From assembly GCA_963767005.1 (NCBI GenBank), contig CAVYCN010000012.1, positions 109,089 through 173,088 on the forward strand: DNA of 64,000 nt, given 5' to 3'. Position 1 is the stretch's first letter. Each line of letters begins with the position of its first letter. The DNA is from an uncultured Actinomycetes bacterium. Lineage in GTDB: Bacteria; Actinomycetota; Thermoleophilia; UBA2241. The notes beneath the pieces were generated by a model that was not told the DNA's origin, did no database searches, and saw only the letters and a list, made by a program, of their open reading frames with translations. Below are positions 50,918 through 64,000 of this stretch, in pieces. The translations under genes and the position numbers were made by a program.

Positions 50918-51068
50918 CCCTGGTGTCCTGGCTTGCCGCTTCGTCCTACTGGCCGCGCCTTCCCACCCCGCGGGGCAGTGGCGGTGTGCGGCGTTCGTCG
51001 GCGGTCACAGTTGCGGGGCAGCGCCGGCCTTGCACCGGCTTCCCGTACGACCGGGGGGACCCGCCAAC
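50918..51068 (-). ncRNA. Cobalamin riboswitch
   Basis: Minus strand GGGAAGCCGGTGCAAGGCCGGCGCTGCCCCGCAACTGTGA...GCCACTG...GGGAAGGC...AAGCCAGGACACC upstream of cobU; boundaries approximate. Confidence 0.95.
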
Positions 51069-55174: not shown

Positions 55175-55852
55175 GTGATGGCTCCGACCACGGTCACAGA
55201 CGACCTGCGGCTCTCGCCGCTGCTGGCCGGTCTTGCCGACGCCCAGATCGCGTCGCTTGCCGAGCTGGCGGCGCCGGTGACCCTGCCGGCCGAGACCGGT
55301 GTCTTCTTGCAGGGTGACCCCGGGGAGGCCTTCTACCTGCTCGCCGCGGGCGCGGTGAAGGTCCTCAAGTCGTTCCGCGACGGGCGCACGGCGACCATCC
55401 GCCACGTGCGGCCCGGCGAGACCTTCGGCGAGTCGGTGCTCTTCAACGACACCTATCCGGCGAGCGCCGAGACCATGGCGACGTCGCGCCTCTACCGCTT
55501 CGGCCGCGACGACTTCCGCGCCCTGGTGCTCAACGAGCCCGAGCTCGGCCTGCGCCTGATCGCCACCATGGCCCACCTCCTGGTCATGCTCAACCAGCGC
55601 GTCGAGGAGCTGCTCCTGCCCGTGCCGGCTCGGCTGGCGCGCTACCTGCTCGAGCTCTGCGGCGAACAGGGCACGCCGGGGCAGTGCAGCCTGAGCGTGC
55701 CCAAGCACGAGGTCGCGGCCCGGCTGGGCACCGTGCCCGAGACCCTGAGCCGCACCCTGGGCCGCCTGGAGCGCGGCGGCCTGATCGCCGCGCGCGGCGC
55801 CACCTACACGGTGATCAACCGCGCCGGTCTCGAGCGCCTCGCGCAGCAGTAG
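55175..55852 (+). CDS. Crp/Fnr-family regulator (DNR/HcpR-like, no Fe-S Cys cluster)
   Basis: cNMP-like domain (GETFGE) and HTH GTVPETLSR carrying the FNR-type ExxSR. Confidence 0.92.
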   Translation: MMAPTTVTDDLRLSPLLAGLADAQIASLAELAAPVTLPAETGVFLQGDPGEAFYLLAAGAVKVLKSFRDGRTATIRHVRPGETFGESVLFNDTYPASAETMATSRLYRFGRDDFRALVLNEPELGLRLIATMAHLLVMLNQRVEELLLPVPARLARYLLELCGEQGTPGQCSLSVPKHEVAARLGTVPETLSRTLGRLERGGLIAARGATYTVINRAGLERLAQQ

Positions 55853-55951
55853 CGGGCCGCCCCGCGGCCGCTCTCCTAGCCGCGCGTTTCGACCGGTCGA
55901 CTCCACGACGTGGCCTTGCGGCGGCCGGAAGGGCCCGGGCCGAACGGCCGC

Positions 55952-55965
55952 TTGATGCAAGTCAA
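55952..55965. promoter_or_regulatory. FNR/DNR-type box
   Basis: TTGATGCAAGTCAA (consensus TTGAT-N4-ATCAA, 1 mismatch), centred about 30 bp upstream of -10 TACGGT (55989), i.e. class II spacing. Confidence 0.75.
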
Positions 55966-56093
55966 GGGAACGTTGCCGCGCAGGCGGGTACGGTTGGCTC
56001 GAGCGCAGGGAGCGCGGCCCGAGACCCCCTCCTCACCCTGACTGACCACAAGCGAGCCGCCGCGCGGCTCCTCGAACGAAAGCGAGCGCGACC

Positions 56094-56483
56094 ATGGCGA
56101 TAGTGACCCGCAGCATCGTCCACATCGACGAGGAGAAGTGCACCGGCTGCGGCCTGTGCGTGCTGCCCTGCGCCGAGGGGGCCATCGAGCTCGTCGACGG
56201 CAAGGCGAAGGTTGTGAAAGAGGAGCTGTGCGACGGCGCCGGCTTCTGCCTGGCCGTCTGTCCCGAAGGGGCGCTCACCGTCGAGCACCGCGAGGCGCCG
56301 GCGTTCGACGAGGACGCGGCGGCCGAGCGCACGGCCGCCAAGCTCGCGTCCGGCGCCGTCATGGTCCAGACCTGCTTCGCCTGCGGGCGCAGCGAGATGG
56401 ACAGCCCGCTGCTGCCGGTGCGCACCGAGGGCCGCAGCACCTGGGTGTGCGTCAAGTGCCTGCCGCAGCTCATCCACGGCTGA
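56094..56483 (+). CDS. 4Fe-4S dicluster protein with C-terminal CxxC...CxxC
   Basis: CTGCGLCVLPC, CDGAGFCLAVCP, CFAC and CVKC motifs. Confidence 0.9.
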   Translation: MAIVTRSIVHIDEEKCTGCGLCVLPCAEGAIELVDGKAKVVKEELCDGAGFCLAVCPEGALTVEHREAPAFDEDAAAERTAAKLASGAVMVQTCFACGRSEMDSPLLPVRTEGRSTWVCVKCLPQLIHG

Positions 56484-56587
56484 CCGACCTTACGGGCGGG
56501 TGACCGTCGCCGACGGCGCCGCTCCCCGCCCGCACCGCACGACCGACGGCCGCGCGCCCCGCGCGACGAGCCCCGACAAGGAGGACC

Positions 56588-58477
56588 ATGGAGACCACAG
56601 GGACACGTGACAGCCTGCACGGCTCGGTGAACGCCGTGCTCGAGCGCACCCGCGCCGCCGGCGAGGACACCGTCTTCGACCGCATGCAGGCGCAGGGCGA
56701 GCGGCGCTGCCAGTTCTGCGAGGGCGGCATCCGCTGCTCGATCTGCTCGCAGGGCCCCTGCCGCATCACCGCCAAGGCGCCGCGCGGCGTCTGCGGCATC
56801 GACGCCGACGGCATGGCGATGCGCGGCTTCCTGCTGCAGAACACGATGGGCGCCGCCGCCTACACCTACCACGCCGGCGAGGTCATGAAGACGCTGGCGC
56901 AGGCCAAGCCGGGCGGCACCTACGAGATCAAGGACTGGAGCAAGCTCGAGCTGCTCGCCCGCGGCGCGGGCGTCGAGCTCGAGCCGCGCGACACGCTGGC
57001 CAAGCGCGTCGCCGACACGATCTGGGCCGAGTTCAACCGCGACCATCACGAGGAATCGCCGCTCATCGCGGCCTTCGCGCCGGCCCCCCGCGTCGCGGCC
57101 TGGCGCAAGCTCGGCGTCATGCCCGGCGGCGTGCTGCACGAGAACAACCGTTGCACCACGAGCTGCATGACCAACATCGACGGCGACTACGTGTCGCTCG
57201 CCGTCAAGGGCCTGCGCCTCGGTCTCGCCACCGCCTACGGCGCCCAGGTGCCGCTCGAGCTCGCCCAGGACGCCCTGTTCGGCACGCCCACGCCGCACGC
57301 CATCAAGGTTGACCTCGGCATCCTCGACGCCACGTATGTGAACGTCGTCGTCAACGGCCACGAGCCCATGCTGGGCGCCGCCCTGATCGACGCCGCGCAC
57401 GCCGACGCCGTCCAGGCCGCCGCCCGTGCCGCCGGCGCCCAGGGCTTGCGCATCGTGGGCAGCATCGAGACCGGCCAGGAGCTCGTGCAGCGCTTCCCGG
57501 TCGACGACGTCTTCGTCGGGCTCACCGGCAACTGGCTGGCGACCGAGATGGTCGTGGCGACCGGCGCCGTCGACGTGTTCGCGGCCGACATGAACTGCAC
57601 CGTGCCGACCCTGGCCGACACCTGCAAGGCCCACGGCACGCTGCTCATCCCGGTGAGCGACCTCATGGGCATCCCCGGCGCCGAGCCGGCCGTCGTGTTC
57701 GATCCCGCCAAGGCGGCCGAGCAGGCGCGGACACTCATCGACCGGGCGATCGCCAACTTCCCGTCGCGCAAGGCGCGTCTGAACGGCAACGGCGTGACCG
57801 GCCTGCGCACCGGCGACGCCGTCGCCGGCTTCTCGACCGAGAGCATCCTCGCCGCGCTCGGCGGCAGCCTCGACCCGCTGCTCGACGTGATCAAGAACGG
57901 CACGCTGCGCGGCGTCGCCGGCCTGGTGAGCTGCACCACGCTGCGCGACTCCGGCCAGGACAGCATGACGGTGGCCGTCGCCCGCGAGCTCATCAAGCAC
58001 GACGTGCTCGTGCTCTCGATGGGCTGTGGCAACGCCGCCTGCCAGGTCGCCGGGTTGCAGGACCTGAAGGCCAAGGAGCTCGCGGGCCCCGGCCTGCAGG
58101 CCGTCTGCGACCTGCTCGGCATCCCGCCGGTGCTGTCGTTTGGCACCTGCACCGACACCGGCCGCATCATGCTGCTGGTCGGCGCCATCGCCGACGCCCT
58201 GGGCGTCGACGTGCCGGCGTTGCCCGTGGTGGCAACGGCGCCCGAGTACATGGAGCAGAAGGCGACGATCGACGCCATGGCCGCCCTCGCCTTCGGCCTG
58301 TACGTGCACGTCAACCCAGTCCCCTTCGTGACCGGCGCGCCGCGCCTGGTCAAGCTCGTCACCGAGGACCTGCCCGGCGTGACCGGCGGCAAGCTCGCCG
58401 TCGAGACCGACCCGATTGAGGCCGTCGCGGCCATGCTCGCGCACATCGAGGCGAAGCGGACCGCGCTCGGCATCTAA
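56588..58477 (+). CDS. cooS: Ni-CODH (CooS) family protein with non-canonical ligands
   Basis: CSICSQGPC...CG B-cluster, NGHEP, DMNC, SC, MGC, GTCTD and EQKA motifs; D-cluster is CxxC; GSIETG replaces GxCCTG. Confidence 0.88.
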   Translation: METTGTRDSLHGSVNAVLERTRAAGEDTVFDRMQAQGERRCQFCEGGIRCSICSQGPCRITAKAPRGVCGIDADGMAMRGFLLQNTMGAAAYTYHAGEVMKTLAQAKPGGTYEIKDWSKLELLARGAGVELEPRDTLAKRVADTIWAEFNRDHHEESPLIAAFAPAPRVAAWRKLGVMPGGVLHENNRCTTSCMTNIDGDYVSLAVKGLRLGLATAYGAQVPLELAQDALFGTPTPHAIKVDLGILDATYVNVVVNGHEPMLGAALIDAAHADAVQAAARAAGAQGLRIVGSIETGQELVQRFPVDDVFVGLTGNWLATEMVVATGAVDVFAADMNCTVPTLADTCKAHGTLLIPVSDLMGIPGAEPAVVFDPAKAAEQARTLIDRAIANFPSRKARLNGNGVTGLRTGDAVAGFSTESILAALGGSLDPLLDVIKNGTLRGVAGLVSCTTLRDSGQDSMTVAVARELIKHDVLVLSMGCGNAACQVAGLQDLKAKELAGPGLQAVCDLLGIPPVLSFGTCTDTGRIMLLVGAIADALGVDVPALPVVATAPEYMEQKATIDAMAALAFGLYVHVNPVPFVTGAPRLVKLVTEDLPGVTGGKLAVETDPIEAVAAMLAHIEAKRTALGI

Positions 58478-58711
58478 GCGACTCCCGGACCTTCCGCCCG
58501 CGTCGGCTTCCGGGCGCACCCCCGGCACCCGGCGCGGGCGGGAGTAAGGGCATCCGCCCTCACCCCCGCCCTTCCTGTGCCTTGGCTCGCGCTTCTCACC
58601 CCCGATCTCTTTGCGCCTGGGGGCTCCCTCCCGAGTTGGCGAAGTCCGTTGCGGGGGGTGACGCTCTCCCTGGACGGTTGCGCCGCGCCGCCGACGCCGC
58701 AAGATGAGGCC

Positions 58712-59716
58712 ATGGGCCTCGAGACCCCGCATCCGGCAGAGGCGCCAGCCCCCACGGGCGCCCCCAGGCTCATGGACCAGCTCCACGCCGCCCTGCGCTC
58801 GCGCCAGTACAGCCGGCGCACCGAACAGGTCTACTGTCTCTGGGTCCGCCGCTACATCCGCTTCAACGGCCTGCGCCATCCGCGCGACATGGCGGCGCCC
58901 GAGATCAACGCCTTTCTCACCCATCTGGCGACCGTCGACGGGGTCAGCGCATCCACACAGACGCAGGCGCTGTCCGCCCTCCTGTTCCTGTACCGGCACG
59001 TGCTCGGCATGCAGGTGGGCGAGCTCGGCGATGTGGTGCGGGCACGCCCGTCGCGCCGCGTACCGGTCGTCCTCACCAGGGATGAGGTGCGCAGAGTCCT
59101 GGCCCACCTCGATGGCGAACCCTGGCTCGTCGCGTCGCTTCTGTACGGCTGCGGGTTGCGCTTCAACGAGTGTCTGCGGCTCCGCGTCCAGGACGTCGAC
59201 TTCGAGCGGCACGAGATCACGGTGCGCGCCGGCAAGGGCAACAAGGATCGGCACACCATGCTGCCGCACTCGCTTGCGGGCCCGCTCAGCGACCAGATCG
59301 AGAGGGCCAGGTGGGTGCACCGGCGTGACCTGGCCGACAGCTGGGGGGCCGTCGTGCTGCCCGACGCGCTCGACCGCAAGTACCCCGCCGCATCGCGAGA
59401 CTGGCGCTGGCAGTGGGTCTTTCCGCAGGCGCGGCGCTGGCGGAACCGACGCACCGGCGAGCAGGGCCGTCACCACGTGCACGCCGGCCTGGTGCAGCGC
59501 GCAGTCCACCAGGCGGTGCAACGGGCCGGCGTGGCCAAGCGCGCCTCCTGCCACACGCTGCGACACTCGTTTGCGACCCACCTGCTCGAATCGAGCTACG
59601 ACATCCGCACGATCCAGGAGCTCCTCGGCCACCGCAGCGTGAGCACGACCATGATCTACACGCATGTGCTGAACGCCGGCGGCCAGGGCGTGCGCAGCCC
59701 ACTCGACGCCCTGTGA
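58712..59716 (+). CDS. intI: Integron integrase
   Basis: [36 protein letters not shown], the IntI-specific insertion [10 protein letters not shown]...[29 protein letters not shown] and TTMIYTHV. Confidence 0.97.
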
Positions 59717-59771
59717 TCCGCCGCTGCTTTCACAAACCACATACCACGCACCCGCGAGCGCTCGCCTTCCC

Positions 59772-59833
59772 CTTATCAACAAGGGCGTATGATGAAACCG
59801 CTTCTTATCAACTCAGTAGAATCACTGTTAGGC
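59772..59833 (+). other. attI-like site and candidate Pc
   Basis: GTTAGGC core at 59827, complementary to the first cassette's GCCTAAC. No upstream attC hairpin seen. CTTATCAAC direct repeats at 59772 and 59804; -10-like TATGAT (59788) and TAGAAT (59817). Confidence 0.7.
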
Positions 59834-59849
59834 GCACGGGAGGCGGGGC

Positions 59850-60227
59850 GTGGACCTGACGCGGCTTCCTGAACCGCTCGTTGCTGCAGCGATCGTGAAC
59901 CAGCCTGAGGGGTGCGAGCATGTCGCTTGGCTCCGCGCACATGCCCTGGAGGTGCTTCGGTACCTGGCCGGGTTCGATGTGGCCGTGCTCGGCGGTGACG
60001 TCTTGGTGCACGACGTTCACGGCTTCCGCCACGCCTACGACAACTGGACCTGTGCGCATCAGGTTGGCGAGAGCTGGCCCGACTACGCAACGCGAAGCCG
60101 GCACGAGGCCGAGGCATACGTGGTCCGCTACCCGGAGCGCGGAGAGACCGCCTACGTGCTCGTGCTGCAGGAGGAGCCGTCAGCCCGCGACCTTCTACTC
60201 TCAAGGGGAGTCGATGCCGGCGCCTAA
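59850..60227 (+). CDS. Cassette 1: Imm40-like immunity protein
   Basis: AW...LGGDV...YDNW...RS...A..Y pattern; SD GGAGG; TAA lies inside attC R''. Confidence 0.65.
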   Translation: MDLTRLPEPLVAAAIVNQPEGCEHVAWLRAHALEVLRYLAGFDVAVLGGDVLVHDVHGFRHAYDNWTCAHQVGESWPDYATRSRHEAEAYVVRYPERGETAYVLVLQEEPSARDLLLSRGVDAGA

Positions 60228-60308
60228 CAAGCAGTTAGAGTTGACTACTCAGTGGCCGCGCCAAGGACTATCGTCTGTCTGCGCAGCTCAACTGCAACCC
60301 CGTTAGAC
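60222..60308 (+). repeat. attC1 (87 bp)
   Basis: GCCTAAC...GCAGTTaGAG/CTCAACTGC...GTTAGAC. Confidence 0.92.
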
Positions 60309-60325
60309 GTACTCAAGGGGGGAGC

Positions 60326-60886
60326 GTGGGCAGCTTCTACACGAACGTCACTCTCGCGAGAGCAACGCCGCAGGCGACGCTCGACGCGCTCGGCTCGCGC
60401 CGGGCCCTCCTGGCCGGCGTCGGCGAACGGGTGCTGGTGTTCGACAAGGCCTGCGAATCGCAGGACCCTCAGGTTCTCGCGGCGCTGTGCGCAGAGCTTT
60501 CGTCCCGGGTCGGCTGTGCTGCGCTCGGTGCGTCGAACCATGACGACGACGTGCTCATGCTGTTTCTGTTCAACGACGGTCGCCCCGTCACCGACTACAA
60601 CTCCTGTCCAGGCTACTTCGGGGGTGACGAACGGCCGCCCTCCGTCGTCGATGCGGCCGCGCTGTGCAAGGCGTTCGGCGTCGAGCAGGCTGCCTCACGC
60701 CTCGCAGCGATCCTGGCCTCCGAAGATGATGACATGCTGTTTGCCACCGACCGTCACCAAGCCGTAGTCGACGCACTCGGGCTGCCGACCGCGAGTGTCG
60801 GGTTCGGCTTTGAGTACCTCATGGCCGGCGAATTGCCCGAGGGCCTCGACGCGGCCGATTTGGTTGCGAGTGGTGGAGACGTCTAA
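60326..60886 (+). CDS. Cassette 2: hypothetical protein
   Basis: 186 aa with SD; TAA lies inside attC R''. Confidence 0.8.
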   Translation: MGSFYTNVTLARATPQATLDALGSRRALLAGVGERVLVFDKACESQDPQVLAALCAELSSRVGCAALGASNHDDDVLMLFLFNDGRPVTDYNSCPGYFGGDERPPSVVDAAALCKAFGVEQAASRLAAILASEDDDMLFATDRHQAVVDALGLPTASVGFGFEYLMAGELPEGLDAADLVASGGDV

Positions 60887-60973
60887 CAAGCACATCGAGC
60901 AGACCGGCCGCCAAGGTGGGCTCCGCGTGAACCGTCATCCACGGCCGACAGCTCATGTGCCAACCCGTTAGGT
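60881..60973 (+). repeat. attC2 (93 bp)
   Basis: GTCTAAC...GCACATcGAGC/GCTCATGTGC...GTTAGGT. Confidence 0.92.
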
Positions 60974-61043
60974 GCGGCAACGTCACCCTCCCCGCCGGCC
61001 CAGCCGCGTAGTATCCTTCGCGTAGGGTCTTCAGGAGGTCGCC

Positions 61044-61256
61044 TTGTCCGTCCATTTCCGAATCGAGCTTGAACAAGAGACCGACGGGCGCTGGATCGCC
61101 GAGGTCGTCGAACTGCCGGGCGTGCTCGCCTACGGTGCCTCGCAAGACGAGGCCGTCGCCCACGTCCAAGCGCTCGCCCTGCGCGTGGTAGCCGACCGCC
61201 TTGAACACGACGAGGCCGGCCGCGAGTACCTGGACATCTCCTTCAAGGCCGCGTGA
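61044..61256 (+). CDS. hicB: Cassette 3: short HicB-like antitoxin
   Basis: EQETDGRWIAEVVELPGVLAYG.S.DEA; SD AGGAGG. Confidence 0.85.
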   Translation: MSVHFRIELEQETDGRWIAEVVELPGVLAYGASQDEAVAHVQALALRVVADRLEHDEAGREYLDISFKAA

Positions 61257-61468
61257 GCGACTGGCCGTCCACCCGTGCTCGCACGGTGTTGGCGGCCCTC
61301 TTGCGTCTCGGCTGGACGGTCAAGCGTCAGACGGGCTCGCACAAGACCCTCTCCCGCCCCGGCTGGTCCGATCTGGTCTTCGCTTTCCACGACCGTGACG
61401 AGATCGGCCCGAAGATGCTCGCCCGCATCGCCAAGAACAGTGGTCTTCGCCCCGAGGACCTGCGATGA
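61253..61468 (+). CDS. hicA: Cassette 3: HicA mRNase toxin
   Basis: LLRLGW..KRQTGSH...FH...EIGPKML; 4-bp overlap with hicB. Confidence 0.88.
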   Translation: MSDWPSTRARTVLAALLRLGWTVKRQTGSHKTLSRPGWSDLVFAFHDRDEIGPKMLARIAKNSGLRPEDLR

Positions 61469-61472
61469 GCGC

Positions 61473-61559
61473 ACCTAACAAGCATTTCGAGCAGACTCGC
61501 CGAATGAGTACGCCAAGAGCGAGCGCCTCCCTCGCAGCTCAAATGCAGCCCCGTTGGGC
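61473..61559 (+). repeat. attC3 (87 bp)
   Basis: ACCTAAC...GCATTTcGAGC/GCTCAAATGC...GTTGGGC. Confidence 0.92.
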
Positions 61560-61628
61560 CTACTCCTCCACTCGTCGCGTGGCTCCCAGCGTCTTGCGCG
61601 GGTAGTATTCGCGACGGAGGTCCTCTTC

Positions 61629-61937
61629 ATGGTCGACGTGCTCCACGACAAGCAGCAGGCCATCGCCGAGTTGTGTGCCCGCCACGGCGTGGCGCGCCTC
61701 GACGTCTTCGGTTCGGCTCTGCGCGACGACTTCCGCCCCGGTGAGAGCGACATCGACTTCTTGGTCGAGTTCGCACCGCACGAGGGCTACGCGCTCGTCG
61801 ACGCCTACTTCGGCCTGCTCGACGACTTGCGGGCCCTGCTGGGCACGGATGTCGACCTCGTCATGGCCGACGCCGTCAAGAACCGCTACATCGCCCGCGA
61901 GATCGAGAACACCAGGCAACCGCTCTATGCAGCGTGA
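61629..61937 (+). CDS. Cassette 4: minimal nucleotidyltransferase antitoxin (MntA-like)
   Basis: FGSALR...SDIDFLVEF and VDLV motifs. Confidence 0.9.
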   Translation: MVDVLHDKQQAIAELCARHGVARLDVFGSALRDDFRPGESDIDFLVEFAPHEGYALVDAYFGLLDDLRALLGTDVDLVMADAVKNRYIAREIENTRQPLYAA

Positions 61938-62280
61938 GGTAGGCGCCTACCTGCAGGACATCATCGACGCCTGTGCGGCGATCGAGTCAGACCTTGCCGA
62001 CCTTACCTTCGATGCCTACCTTGCCACACGGGCCGTGCGCTCAGCCGTCGAGCGCGAGTTCATCATCGTCGGTAAGGCAGCCGCCGCGCTTGCTCACCTC
62101 GACGCCGATCTGTTCGACAAGATCAGCCACGGCCGACGCATCGTCGACTTTCGCAACCAGCTCACGCATGCCTACCAGCTCGTCGACGATCGTATCGTGT
62201 GGTTGATCGCCGCCAACGACGTGCCTGTGCTCAGGCGGGAGTGCGAGGAGCTTCTTCGGGGCTTTGCGGGAGAGGCCTAA
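61927..62280 (+). CDS. Cassette 4: HEPN/DUF86 RNase toxin (HepT-like)
   Basis: YLQDI...AVER...FRNQLTHAY (Rx4HxY). Confidence 0.9.
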   Translation: MQREVGAYLQDIIDACAAIESDLADLTFDAYLATRAVRSAVEREFIIVGKAAAALAHLDADLFDKISHGRRIVDFRNQLTHAYQLVDDRIVWLIAANDVPVLRRECEELLRGFAGEA

Positions 62281-62361
62281 CAAGCATTTCGAGCAGACTC
62301 GCCGAATGTCTCTGCCAAGAGCGACCGCCTCGCTCGCAGCTCAAATGCAAGACCGTTAGGC
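62275..62361 (+). repeat. attC4 (87 bp)
   Basis: GCCTAAC...GCATTTcGAGC/GCTCAAATGC...GTTAGGC. Confidence 0.92.
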
Positions 62362-62377
62362 CTACAGAAGACTCGGC

Positions 62378-62841
62378 ATGGCATTGATTACAGATCGGGT
62401 GGCACAGGCCCGCGTCGGCACCAACGACCGCGTCATCGCGCGTCTTCGCTCGGCTGAGCGGTCCTGGGTGACGACCAGCGTCTGCCCGGCTACTGCCTGT
62501 TGCTCCCCGATCCCGTGGTCTCCAGCCTCAACGATCTCTCCGAGCCAGCTCGCGCCGAGTTCCTTTCGGACATGGCGCGGATTGGCGACGTGATCCTCTC
62601 GGTGACCGGAGCCGAACGGGTGAACTACGAGATCCTGGGCAACTCCGAGCCCGAGCTTCATGCCCACATACATCCCCGGTATGCCGACGAACCGGCCGAG
62701 GGCCGCCGCTTGCCGGTGTGGTTCTACGAGCTGCAGGACGCGGTAACGTACTCGCGGCGACGGCCTGCCCGACCTCTGGAGCAGCTTCGTGCGGCCCTGC
62801 AGTCTGAGACCCAACAGGCATTTCGAGCAGGCTCGCAGTAG
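62378..62841 (+). pseudogene. Cassette 5: HIT-family hydrolase pseudogene
   Basis: MALITDRV...IARLRS continues in another frame after a 1-bp loss near 62451, with a TGA at the expected Trp (G*AVLGDDQRLPGYCLLLPDP...NYEILGN..PELHAHIHPRY). Confidence 0.8.
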
Positions 62842-62895
62842 GGTTGCGCCAAGAGCGGGCGTTTCGCTCGCAGGTCAAATGCAATCCCGTTAAGC
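62809..62895 (+). repeat. attC5 (87 bp, partly degenerate)
   Basis: ACCCAAC...GCATTTcGAGC/GGTCAAATGC...GTTAAGC. Confidence 0.88.
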
Positions 62896-62927
62896 CGATG
62901 CGGCCACCGTTGGACCAGGGGCACAGC

Positions 62928-63518
62928 GTGACCATCGGAATCTCGAAGCTGGAGACGTGTCACCGAGACGCCTTCCTTGGGGTGCTGGACGACTGCGACG
63001 CTCACGACCCGAGAAACGGCGAGTTCTACCTGGCCGGGCGCGCCGACTTCAATGCCTATGTGCAGGGCCTGCACGACATGGAGCGTGGTATCAACCTGCC
63101 GCAGGGCTGGGTTCCCAGCTCCAACCGCTGGCTGTTCGACGACGCCGGCGAGATCTGCGGCGTGGTTCGAGTCAGGCACAACATCGACACGCCGTTTCTA
63201 GCCGGGGAGGCGGGTCACATCGGCTACGACGTGCCGCCGAGCAAGCGCGGGCGTGGCTACGGTGTAGCAAGCCTGCGCGCGGGACTGGCCGAGGCGCGAC
63301 GGCTCGGGCTGATGCGGGTGCTGCTGTGCGCGAACACGGGTAACCCCGCATCCTGGCGCACCATTGAAGCCTGCAGCGGTGTGTTCGAGCGCGAGTTCCA
63401 CTCGGAGTTCTTTGGCTGTCTGGTGCGCCGCTACTGGATCGACGTTTCCCAGGCACAAGGTCACGGTGCACTGGCCCAACAAGCAGTTAGAGCAGACGCC
63501 GCCCGCAGGTATGCTTGA
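62928..63518 (+). CDS. Cassette 6: GNAT-family acetyltransferase
   Basis: GWVP...VRH...GHIGYDVPPSKRGRGYG...NPASWRTIE..G; reads through attC R''. Confidence 0.85.
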   Translation: MTIGISKLETCHRDAFLGVLDDCDAHDPRNGEFYLAGRADFNAYVQGLHDMERGINLPQGWVPSSNRWLFDDAGEICGVVRVRHNIDTPFLAGEAGHIGYDVPPSKRGRGYGVASLRAGLAEARRLGLMRVLLCANTGNPASWRTIEACSGVFEREFHSEFFGCLVRRYWIDVSQAQGHGALAQQAVRADAARRYA

Positions 63519-63567
63519 GTTCGCAACGCAACCGGCGCGGCGCAGCTCAAGTGCAGCGACGCTAGAC
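63474..63567 (+). repeat. attC6 (94 bp, degenerate core)
   Basis: GCCCAAC...GCAGTTaGAGC/GCTCAAGTGC...GCTAGAC (GTT changed to GCT). Confidence 0.8.
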
Positions 63568-63581
63568 CAACACGAGGTGAA

Positions 63582-64000
63582 GTGAAGTGAAGCTGGACAC
63601 GGGTGGCAGCGGTGGCTGCGGCTTTGGCCACCCTCAGCCTCGCCGCCTGTTCGAACCACGGCGGGACCGCGCAGTCACTCCCGCACGCCCGTTCCTACCA
63701 GACCCTCCGGGCGCTGTGGCGTGCGTCCGCCACCGCCGGTGGTCCGCGGAACCAGCCCCATGTTGTCCACGCGCCATTCTCCAAGACGGCAGCCCTGGGT
63801 CGACTGTTGCCGACGGCCTCGCCGTATGGCGCAGTGCTCGTCGCCACGCCGGGCGGTGGCTTCGCGCTCAAGGACGGCACCCCGGCCGCCAACGCGCTCT
63901 GCGCCCTCTTCCCGGGGCGTGTGCCGAGGGCCGAATGCGACGCGTTCGCCGGCTCGTTCTACGGCGGCGCCGGCTGGCGCACCGTCGTGCAACGGATACG
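63582..64000 (+). CDS. Cassette 7: putative lipoprotein, partial, possibly with an early nonsense codon
   Basis: GTG AAG TGA AGC TGG ACA CGG GTG...: SWTRVAAVAAALATLSLAAC lipobox; frame open to the window end. Confidence 0.5.

Follow-up and report, generated by a model that had tools for sequence, protein, structure and literature searches.

Can an integron be native to the Actinobacteria, or does an apparently complete one in this phylum call for another explanation? According to the published surveys, all Actinobacteria genomes are without complete integrons, a gap that has been called intriguing (PMC4889954, PMC9024848) and that persists among RefSeq genomes (PMC9024848); a 2026 soil-metagenome study, which recognises the inverted type, speaks of a ‘virtual absence’ and of about 0.2 integron-type recombinases per genome (PMC13323075). 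Here we analysed 64,000 nucleotides (the window) of contig CAVYCN010000012.1 (C12) from the draft assembly GCA_963767005.1, in which an integrase gene, intI, an attI site and an array of attC-delimited cassettes occupy positions 58712 to 64000. The original prediction, made from the letters alone, took this locus for a sedentary chromosomal integron with an inverted integrase, in a phylum from which native integrons were regarded as essentially absent; the three studies cited above do state this. Our comparisons argue, at a probability of roughly 80%, that it is a complete chromosomal integron of the Treponema type, inherited beside cooS within its genus, that its lineage is present in more than half of the family, and that it is likely to be still capturing and reordering cassettes.

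The integrase gene (58712..59716, + strand) is intact, encodes 334 amino acids without an internal stop and is co-oriented with the array. Its product scores 462 bits against TIGR02249 (cut-off, 265), aligns with the solved IntI4 chain 2A3V over residues 26–333 (E = 3e-81), retains all six catalytic residues (R150, K175, H281, R284, H307 and Y316) and has the IntI-specific insertion LDRKYP...WRWQWVF...RHHVH at about residues 220–257, as expected of the full-length integron integrase that had been proposed. The host-like GC content claimed for intI stood in part: its GC of 0.70 is near the 0.71–0.73 of three flanking host genes, but GC at third codon positions is 0.90 as against 0.95–0.97. The protein is 55% identical to IntI1 and stays below the IntI1 equivalog cut-off NF011946 (362.7 versus 435 bits). 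In agreement with the absence of a transposase noted at the left junction, none was called among 47 open reading frames (ORFs) of the window at the insensitive threshold of E ≤ 1e-40, or among the three flanking genes. By identity, cut-off and left flank, this is not a class 1 mobile integron.

An attI-like GTTAGGC starts 110 bp past the intI stop, where it had been predicted. The core TTAYRCAG–CTGCA–AAT–N4–GTT is conserved up to GTT and divergent beyond it in 45 loci of the family and of a second family, f4, with two further TTAYRCAG boxes upstream; comparison thus places attI, with its crossover at GTT, at the start of the array, and the core of cassette 1 pairs with its own inverse core at 7 of 7 positions. 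In the window, the attI core (59804..59833, +) consists of box C, or the L site, followed by the R site GTTAGGC (59827–59833), with the predicted crossover at 59827/59828. An upstream region (59728..59793, +), delimited by eye and for which we infer an accessory function, contains box A (59728–59743), box B (59772–59785) and TATGAT (59788–59793), a candidate −10 element of a cassette promoter. The TTAYRCAG boxes and a TANNNT hexamer recur at equal distance from the crossover in the relatives G004, G010, G021, G016, G025, G114, G019 and G092 (by eye). The likely candidate for the cassette promoter is this hexamer, 39–34 bp ahead of the crossover in the genera g1, g6, g9 and g11, or, in g10, an extended −10 some 55 bp ahead (both by eye). 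The candidate in G000, the genome of the window, has a weak −35, and a generic promoter scan finds none; no terminator-like site lies on the + strand between intI and attI, so read-through from intI is possible. The repeated GTTAYGC-like boxes resemble the DR1 and DR2 sites of attI1. In five relatives, toxin–antitoxin-like pairs (named by eye) directly follow the intI stop and precede attI, outside the array (L120 in G032, L129 in G013, L121 in G030, L003 in G034 and L133 in G028; L numbers denote loci, g numbers genera and other G numbers relatives of G000).

Six attC sites of 87–94 bp, all on the + strand, follow at 60222–60308, 60881–60973, 61473–61559, 62275–62361, 62809–62895 and 63474–63567 (attC1–attC6). 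They bear out the predicted six sites and at least seven cassettes on the strand of intI, the seventh being cut by the contig end. A rule-based finder recovered five of the six, whereas 300 shuffles gave a mean of 0.14 (maximum, 2) and the minus strand gave none; the sixth, with GCT for GTT in its core, was matched by a hidden Markov model (HMM) and by a covariance model built from sites of this array, the sixth included, and of relatives. Across 61 sites from the array and relatives, pairing is canonical in 93% of cells, a percentage that is partly circular because the sites were chosen by a complementarity rule, and two-sided changes occur in 11 of 18 pairs; the covariation score of 0.36 compares with 0.13 in shuffles and at most 0.08 in slid controls. 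The unpaired columns, at positions 16 and 23, agree with the extrahelical bases of canonical attC. The sites are homogeneous and lineage-specific, with 194 of 209 family sites measuring 80–99 bp and a mean column identity of 65% over the 61 sites. Cores pair with their own inverse cores at 7/7 positions in cassettes 1–3 and at 6/7, 5/7 and 5/7 in cassettes 4–6, as would be expected if the newest cassettes sit at attI.

Cassette 1 (59828..60308, +; 475 bp; ORF 59850–60227) likely encodes an Imm40-type immunity protein, judged from a Pfam Imm40 match below the cut-off (E = 0.01) and a first Atlas match to Imm40 (score, 0.90). The 186-amino-acid protein (60326–60886) of cassette 2 (60303..60973, +; 665 bp) has no Pfam or NCBIfam match, and its Atlas clusters (score, 0.95) are unnamed. 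Cassette 3 (60968..61559, +; 586 bp) pairs a HicB-like antitoxin (61044–61256), with only weak UPF0150/DUF7387 matches, with a HicA toxin (61253–61468; PF07927, E = 5e-13); it has its own −10 candidate, TAGTAT, and homologous cassettes in 7 other arrays. A second toxin–antitoxin pair, also with homologues in other arrays, makes up cassette 4 (61554..62361, +; 802 bp): an MNT nucleotidyltransferase (61629–61937; PF01909; PADLOC PDC-S09, E = 1e-33) and a HEPN/HepT-like RNase (61927–62280; PF01934). Both pairs recur elsewhere in the arrays of relatives at 68–81% DNA identity. Cassette 5 (62356..62895, +; 534 bp) has a HIT-like gene (E = 0.037, below the cut-off) with a frameshift near 62460–62480, and cassette 6 (62890..63567, +; 672 bp) a GNAT acetyltransferase (62928–63518; PF00583 and PF13302) that reads into its attC. 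The truncated cassette 7 (63562..64000, +) has an ORF open from 63603, without a family match but with a 47% identical homologue in the array of G108. No resistance gene was identified among the cassettes, and the array contains no Rfam match.

The host is, by its RpoB sequence, a member of the Thermoleophilia, a class of the Actinomycetota, and had rightly been judged actinobacterial. RpoB of G000 (on contig C10) shares 96% identity with a protein labelled ‘Thermoleophilia bacterium’, and the organism-named entries among its best 120 matches are all Thermoleophilia, Gaiellaceae or Actinobacteria; the G000 assembly contains no 16S gene. The contig itself is tied to this lineage by cooS, the anaerobic CO dehydrogenase gene on the left flank of intI (56588..58477, +; TIGR01702, 727 bits), which has 89–96% identical homologues in 8 of 11 genus relatives. 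Seven genomes of the genus have sequence past cooS. In G000 and G004, a gene order of Crp, ferredoxin, cooS and intI is shared, with intact integrases (75% identical) and attI in both. In G011, intI is deleted and the attI core is nearly the same (34 of 36 bases as in G000), but another first cassette follows. In G010 and G008, attI and cassettes persist alongside remnants of intI; G007 retains an attC and a short piece of intI (by eye); and G006 has a toxin–antitoxin pair and an attC-like remnant. Because intact or decayed remains follow cooS across the genus, we place an integron at cooS in the ancestor of these genomes. Other genera have other left neighbours of intI, such as rplM–rpsI-like genes in three g6 genomes (by eye), so the predicted ‘sedentary’ character applies within the genus, which shares the cooS locus, and not across the family. 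Elsewhere in G000, a degenerate attC-like sequence at a contig start (C4:1–150), unscored by the covariance model, might be what erosion has left of the far end of an array, perhaps the one at cooS.

The integron is not an oddity of one genome. In surveys of genomes that are drafts, mostly metagenome-assembled, IntI (E ≤ 1e-40) was found in 50 of 89 genomes of the family (f1), in 8 of 11 genera and at 54 loci; 47 of these genomes exceed the family cut-off, and nearly all of them have an intI without stops. In a sample of 400 genomes of the class, IntI occurs in 34/62 genomes of f1, 13/47 of f4 and 1/21 of a further family, f6, and in 0/270 of nine other families, four of which gave 0/90, 0/86, 0/33 and 0/47. 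A phylum sample yielded IntI in 20 of 400 genomes from 11 families, one match being only partial. The attC model found sites in 81 of the 89 family genomes, with at least 49 attC in each of G080 and G108. Within the class, it found them in 23/26 genomes of f1, 8/26 of f4 and 2/21 of f6, and in 0/77 of others (including 0/26, 0/24, 0/12 and 0/11 in four IntI-negative families). In 4 family genomes (G100, G030, G032 and G029), intI and rpoB share a contig. The expectation of finding no integron in this lineage matches what surveys report, but integrons are the rule in the family. Taken together, the family and phylum counts show that the reported gap arises, at least in part, from the choice of lineages that have been cultured. 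Three small, near-complete f1 genomes (G020, G024 and G027; 1.7–2.5 Mb) are without intI, two keeping a few attC and one none, which suggests loss with genome reduction.

At the locus described here, intI precedes attI and reads on the strand of the cassettes, which is the inverted-integrase layout. Two or more co-oriented attC were found downstream of intI at 30 of 52 loci in the family, 6 of 10 in f4 and 8 of 21 in other actinobacteria, compared with divergent arrays at 0/52, 0/10 and 1/21, respectively; many intI loci without a visible array have little downstream sequence. The predicted co-oriented layout was therefore correct, but what had been called a minority type is normal for this integrase clade.

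In a FastTree phylogeny of 154 rows (full-length, one-piece matches and two Xer-like outgroups from the same genome, with split or short matches left out; the named comparison IntIs are the best 80 of at least 589 matches), one clade (support, 0.92) unites 45 IntIs of the family with a Coriobacteriia record and is sister to a clade of Treponema, Chlorobiaceae, Desulfuromonas and Planctomycetia (0.91). Sequences of f4 and further Coriobacteriia rows adjoin it, and f20, f22, f56 and f68 form a separate clade (1.0). An IQ-TREE analysis of 81 rows, from which 17 family rows and many named rows were dropped, recovered one 46-row Actinomycetota clade, again beside the Treponema-containing clade, with weak support (81). 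Because the inverted-integrase group is reported to be paraphyletic (PMC4889954), grouping with Treponema-type integrases does not define it strictly. A tree constrained to make 28 family rows monophyletic was not rejected (p-AU 0.63) and had the better likelihood, and distances in the IntI tree are correlated with those in the RpoB tree over 31 genomes (Mantel rho 0.46, p 0.0002; kin are not independent). We read these trees as pointing to an acquisition that was probably old and mainly vertically inherited, with some exchange, and to two or more distinct integrase lineages within the phylum. The loci L223–L233 (f20, f22, f56 and f68) represent a second inverted-integrase clade, the attC of which have right spacers of 9–10 nt; standard attC models may miss such long spacers. 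Six Coriobacteriia records (L032, L036, L042, L043, L045 and L053) encode closely related inverted integrases (64–70% identity), three of them with visible co-oriented arrays.

How is the integrase controlled? A leaderless, host-style intI promoter had been predicted, and a conserved geometry in relatives supports it. The predicted promoter (58678..58705, +) has a −35 of TTGCGC, a 16-bp spacer and a −10 of CAAGAT, with the ATG 6 nt on, and is without a LexA box. The same arrangement (a TTG-hexamer, 16 bp and an nAnnnT, CAnnnT-like −10) occurs at 19 family loci, plus G004, G010 and G021 by eye, and the start codon often lies about 6–7 nt past the −10 at family intI loci; a generic sigma-70 scan left the intI promoter of G000 under threshold. 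Three bases before the −35, the palindrome GTGACGTT-N4-GTCAC is present, with at most one mismatch, at 32 of 48 family intI loci and at 0 of 100 loci outside the family. Exact matches in five relatives are found only at intI in three, at intI and one other place in one, and nowhere in one. The copy in the window (58657..58675, +; 3.7 bits), just upstream of the −35, keeps its left half. Our best guess is that the palindrome is a putative activator or autoregulatory site.

LexA and GAAC-N4-GTTC boxes exist in G000, including one at lexA, but none occurs at 58400–60000 of the window or in the 420 bp before recA, and only 1 of 48 family intI loci has a LexA box, about 205 bp upstream. The integron is therefore not of the SOS-regulated type (IntI1, IntIA), which has a LexA box at the intI promoter. 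Two other interpretations of the palindrome were rejected, and a third is a possible lead. Its weight-matrix matches in G000 lie mostly inside coding sequence and none is at lexA or recA, unlike the sites of a host regulon. G000 has two tandem WYL genes, and the possible lead is a WYL activator with a DriD-like or SiwR-like site. The published DriD site does not match in sequence, although it too ends just upstream of the −35 (PMC9186387), and SiwR binds between −35 and −10 (PMC10693628). A role as the left crossover of a self-excising integron, finally, was rejected, since the G of the palindrome has a C as its mirror image on the other arm and GTTGACG is unlike the family core. The tandem WYL genes of G000 are PafBC-like, and its LexA has standard Gram-positive boxes (C2:45412–46821, 234538 and 389737).

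Many genomes of the family have more than one attI. A weight matrix from 40 primary attI cores found three sites in G000: that at intI and two others (C2:324494 and C4:271773), both followed by cassettes and attC sites. The first lies after a gpsA-like gene (by eye), in an integrase-less mini-array (C2:324390–325204); at the second, the module begins one base past the stop of a thioredoxin-reductase-like gene (by eye), and the mini-array (C4:271670–272888) contains a frameshifted HicB/HicA-like pair. Among relatives, 15 of 19 regions around attC clusters (two overlap, and two are intI or cooS loci) have an attI match, with up to 14 attC behind one integrase-less attI. A degenerate attI pattern matched 148 times in 61 of 89 genomes, with two or more matches in 38 genomes and up to 9 per genome, whereas the reversed control matched twice and intI loci number 54; because the pattern misses the sites of G000 itself, 148 is a minimum. 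Fragments of intI or of its promoter persist at 8 or more of 39 secondary attI sites (6 identified by HMM and 2 by eye), and most of the others start at box A without an intI remnant. One route to such sites was therefore the arrival of a whole platform followed by deletion of intI, which makes it less likely that attI modules spread by clean mobilisation alone. Six secondary sites have a G in front of box A (by eye), compared with 1 of 18 primary sites, a difference that is only suggestive. In G079, an MNT–HEPN cassette lies between two identical 22-bp attI cores (L304, C135:15176–16046), and its attC runs straight into the GTTACGC box of the second; the joint looks like a footprint of recombination at that box and resembles the ΔattI cassettes of mobile integrons (PMC12901181).

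If established integron biochemistry applies, IntI would bind the folded bottom strand of attC and excise a cassette circle (attC × attC), which would be inserted at the G/TT of attI (attI × attC), so that the newest cassette stands next to intI; a footprint of such exchange is that relatives with the same attI differ in their first cassette. The conservation described above suggests that transcription of the cassettes would start at a promoter located between the end of intI and attI, possibly with read-through from intI, and that intI would be expressed from a weak leaderless promoter that is not LexA-controlled and probably needs a factor at the upstream palindrome. The two toxin–antitoxin cassettes probably limit array loss. 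Over longer times, whole platforms could be copied to new loci and lose intI to become attI-headed arrays, which a single intact integrase could serve in trans. More speculatively, and less probably than not, the family might have a hitherto undescribed distributed system in which a LexA-independent integrase with a palindromic operator serves scattered attI-plus-promoter platforms and spawns some of them by recombination of attC with GTTAYGC boxes. On that view, native, old and active integrons would exist in several uncultured lineages of Actinomycetota, and their apparent lack in the phylum would reflect sampling and no barrier in the host. GC skew, too weak and mixed on all 19 contigs, gave no replication-strand orientation for the attC bottom strand.

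Several observations weigh against a complete, inherited and still active integron. At cooS, intI is broken or gone in 5 of the 7 genus genomes; the palindrome is degenerate in G000; the R boxes of attC3 and attC6 barely pair in the fold ensemble (pR below 0.01); and distal cassettes are damaged, with the frameshift in cassette 5 and no GTT in attC6. Four public DNA runs gave short contigs, and among the pieces listed, none bridges the cooS–intI junction and none has an alternative cassette order. In the IQ-TREE phylogeny, six Coriobacteriia-type rows fall within the family clade and deep nodes are weak (81–91), and several genomes are placed differently in the IntI and RpoB trees, mismatches that imply transfer among relatives. 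The right end of the array is unseen, because the window stops with contig C12 inside cassette 7.

The losses at cooS, the degenerate palindrome and the distal damage would fit a native integron that is a frozen relic, its intI intact by recent chance and barely expressed, its operator decayed and its array eroding; promoters without a LexA box are also said to go often with non-functional integrases (PMC8946536). This explanation is improbable: despite the missing LexA box, 47 of 89 family genomes retain an integrase over the cut-off, almost none of them interrupted by a stop, cores pair in full in the three proximal cassettes, and the closest relative with a remnant has another first cassette behind the same attI. 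Less likely still is a recently acquired mobile integron on a transposon, island or plasmid with its right end beyond the contig. The unassembled right end, flanks that differ between genera, satellite platforms that in some cases lie beside tRNA genes or a phage-type integrase (by eye), and a nearest non-genus IntI from a Coriobacteriia record would suit it, but the left flank is host metabolism without a called transposase, the locus is common to the genus, with IntI 75% identical, the best plasmid matches are at most 57% identical and GC is near that of the host. An array bounded by transposon ends is thereby contradicted at the left, the right end being beyond view. That the junction is chimeric, or the contig a mis-binned piece of a non-actinobacterial organism, is a negligible prospect even for a draft with 4.87% estimated contamination, rpoB on another contig and no listed contig across the junction, because cooS is conserved in the genus, four family genomes have intI on rpoB-bearing contigs, and the same junction, intact or decayed, is found in independent assemblies of other species (G004, G011, G010 and G008, with a decayed form also in G007), a synteny that excludes a chimera.

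The genes to the left of the integron are host genes. A regulator of the Crp/Fnr family (55175–55852, +), a ferredoxin (56094–56483, +) and the CO dehydrogenase form a unit (55175–58477) that is conserved in the genus; the regulator may, by analogy, be a CooA-like sensor. Further upstream, an ordinary cobalamin riboswitch (50922–51044, −) precedes a cobU-led operon for corrinoid salvage and transport.

Missing or divergent host factors have been proposed as the barrier to integrons in Gram-positive bacteria (PMC8946536), and the family offers natural integrase–attI–attC sets for testing that idea, as well as an example of an integrase that is not under LexA control although its host has LexA, and a large, high-GC cassette pool. 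Class 1 integrons are occasionally reported in Corynebacterium and other Gram-positive bacteria (PMC8946536), and one Actinobacteria species, marked pathogenic, is listed with a type A integron (PMC6054849). Three supplements of PMC13323075 contain no match to Thermoleophilia, the accessible part of PMC11089894 holds nothing relevant, and no title or abstract opening that describes native integrons in this lineage was found in a literature consisting mostly of non-subscription papers; supplements of large surveys may list such genomes.

Among known systems, the closest are the inverted integrons of the Treponema denticola type (PMC3607928, PMC4889954), in which intI likewise reads toward attI and the cassettes, the setting is chromosomal, and gains and losses occur at the level of lineages; the IntI of the T. 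denticola record is 57% identical. The integron described here differs in its actinomycetotal host, its own IntI clade, a locus that varies between genera and many attI per genome. An attI immediately downstream of intI is also reported for archaea (bioRxiv 10.1101/2022.02.06.479319). With IntI1 and the class 1 integrons it shares the enzyme family, at 55% identity, but neither a transposon at the visible flank nor an identified resistance gene. With the sedentary integrons of Vibrio and Xanthomonas (PMC8946536; bioRxiv 10.1101/2025.06.18.660453) it has in common homogeneous lineage-specific attC, toxin–antitoxin cassettes among mostly unknown genes, frequent decay of intI, tens of cassettes (as in G080 and G108) and clusters of attC sites lacking integrases (CALINs) at other loci. 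Unlike those, it is co-oriented, has an intI promoter without a LexA box and occupies no single family-wide locus comparable to ilvD. The family attC, of 87–90 bp, have right spacers of 8–9 nt (237 of 245 family sites), compared with mostly 5–6 nt in the divergent arrays sampled. As in CALINs and ΔattI cassettes (PMC4889954; PMC12901181), integrase-less arrays could be served in trans, and pieces of attI form cassette borders, as in G079. Unlike CALINs, the integrase-less arrays here begin with a module of about 100 bp that comprises a nearly complete attI and promoter; most secondary arrays of the family start with the full attI platform, a feature that the available text on Xanthomonas CALINs does not describe (bioRxiv 10.1101/2025.06.18.660453). 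The type of integron is thus known, and what is new is its host range, a LexA-free promoter with a palindrome and an organisation with many attI sites.

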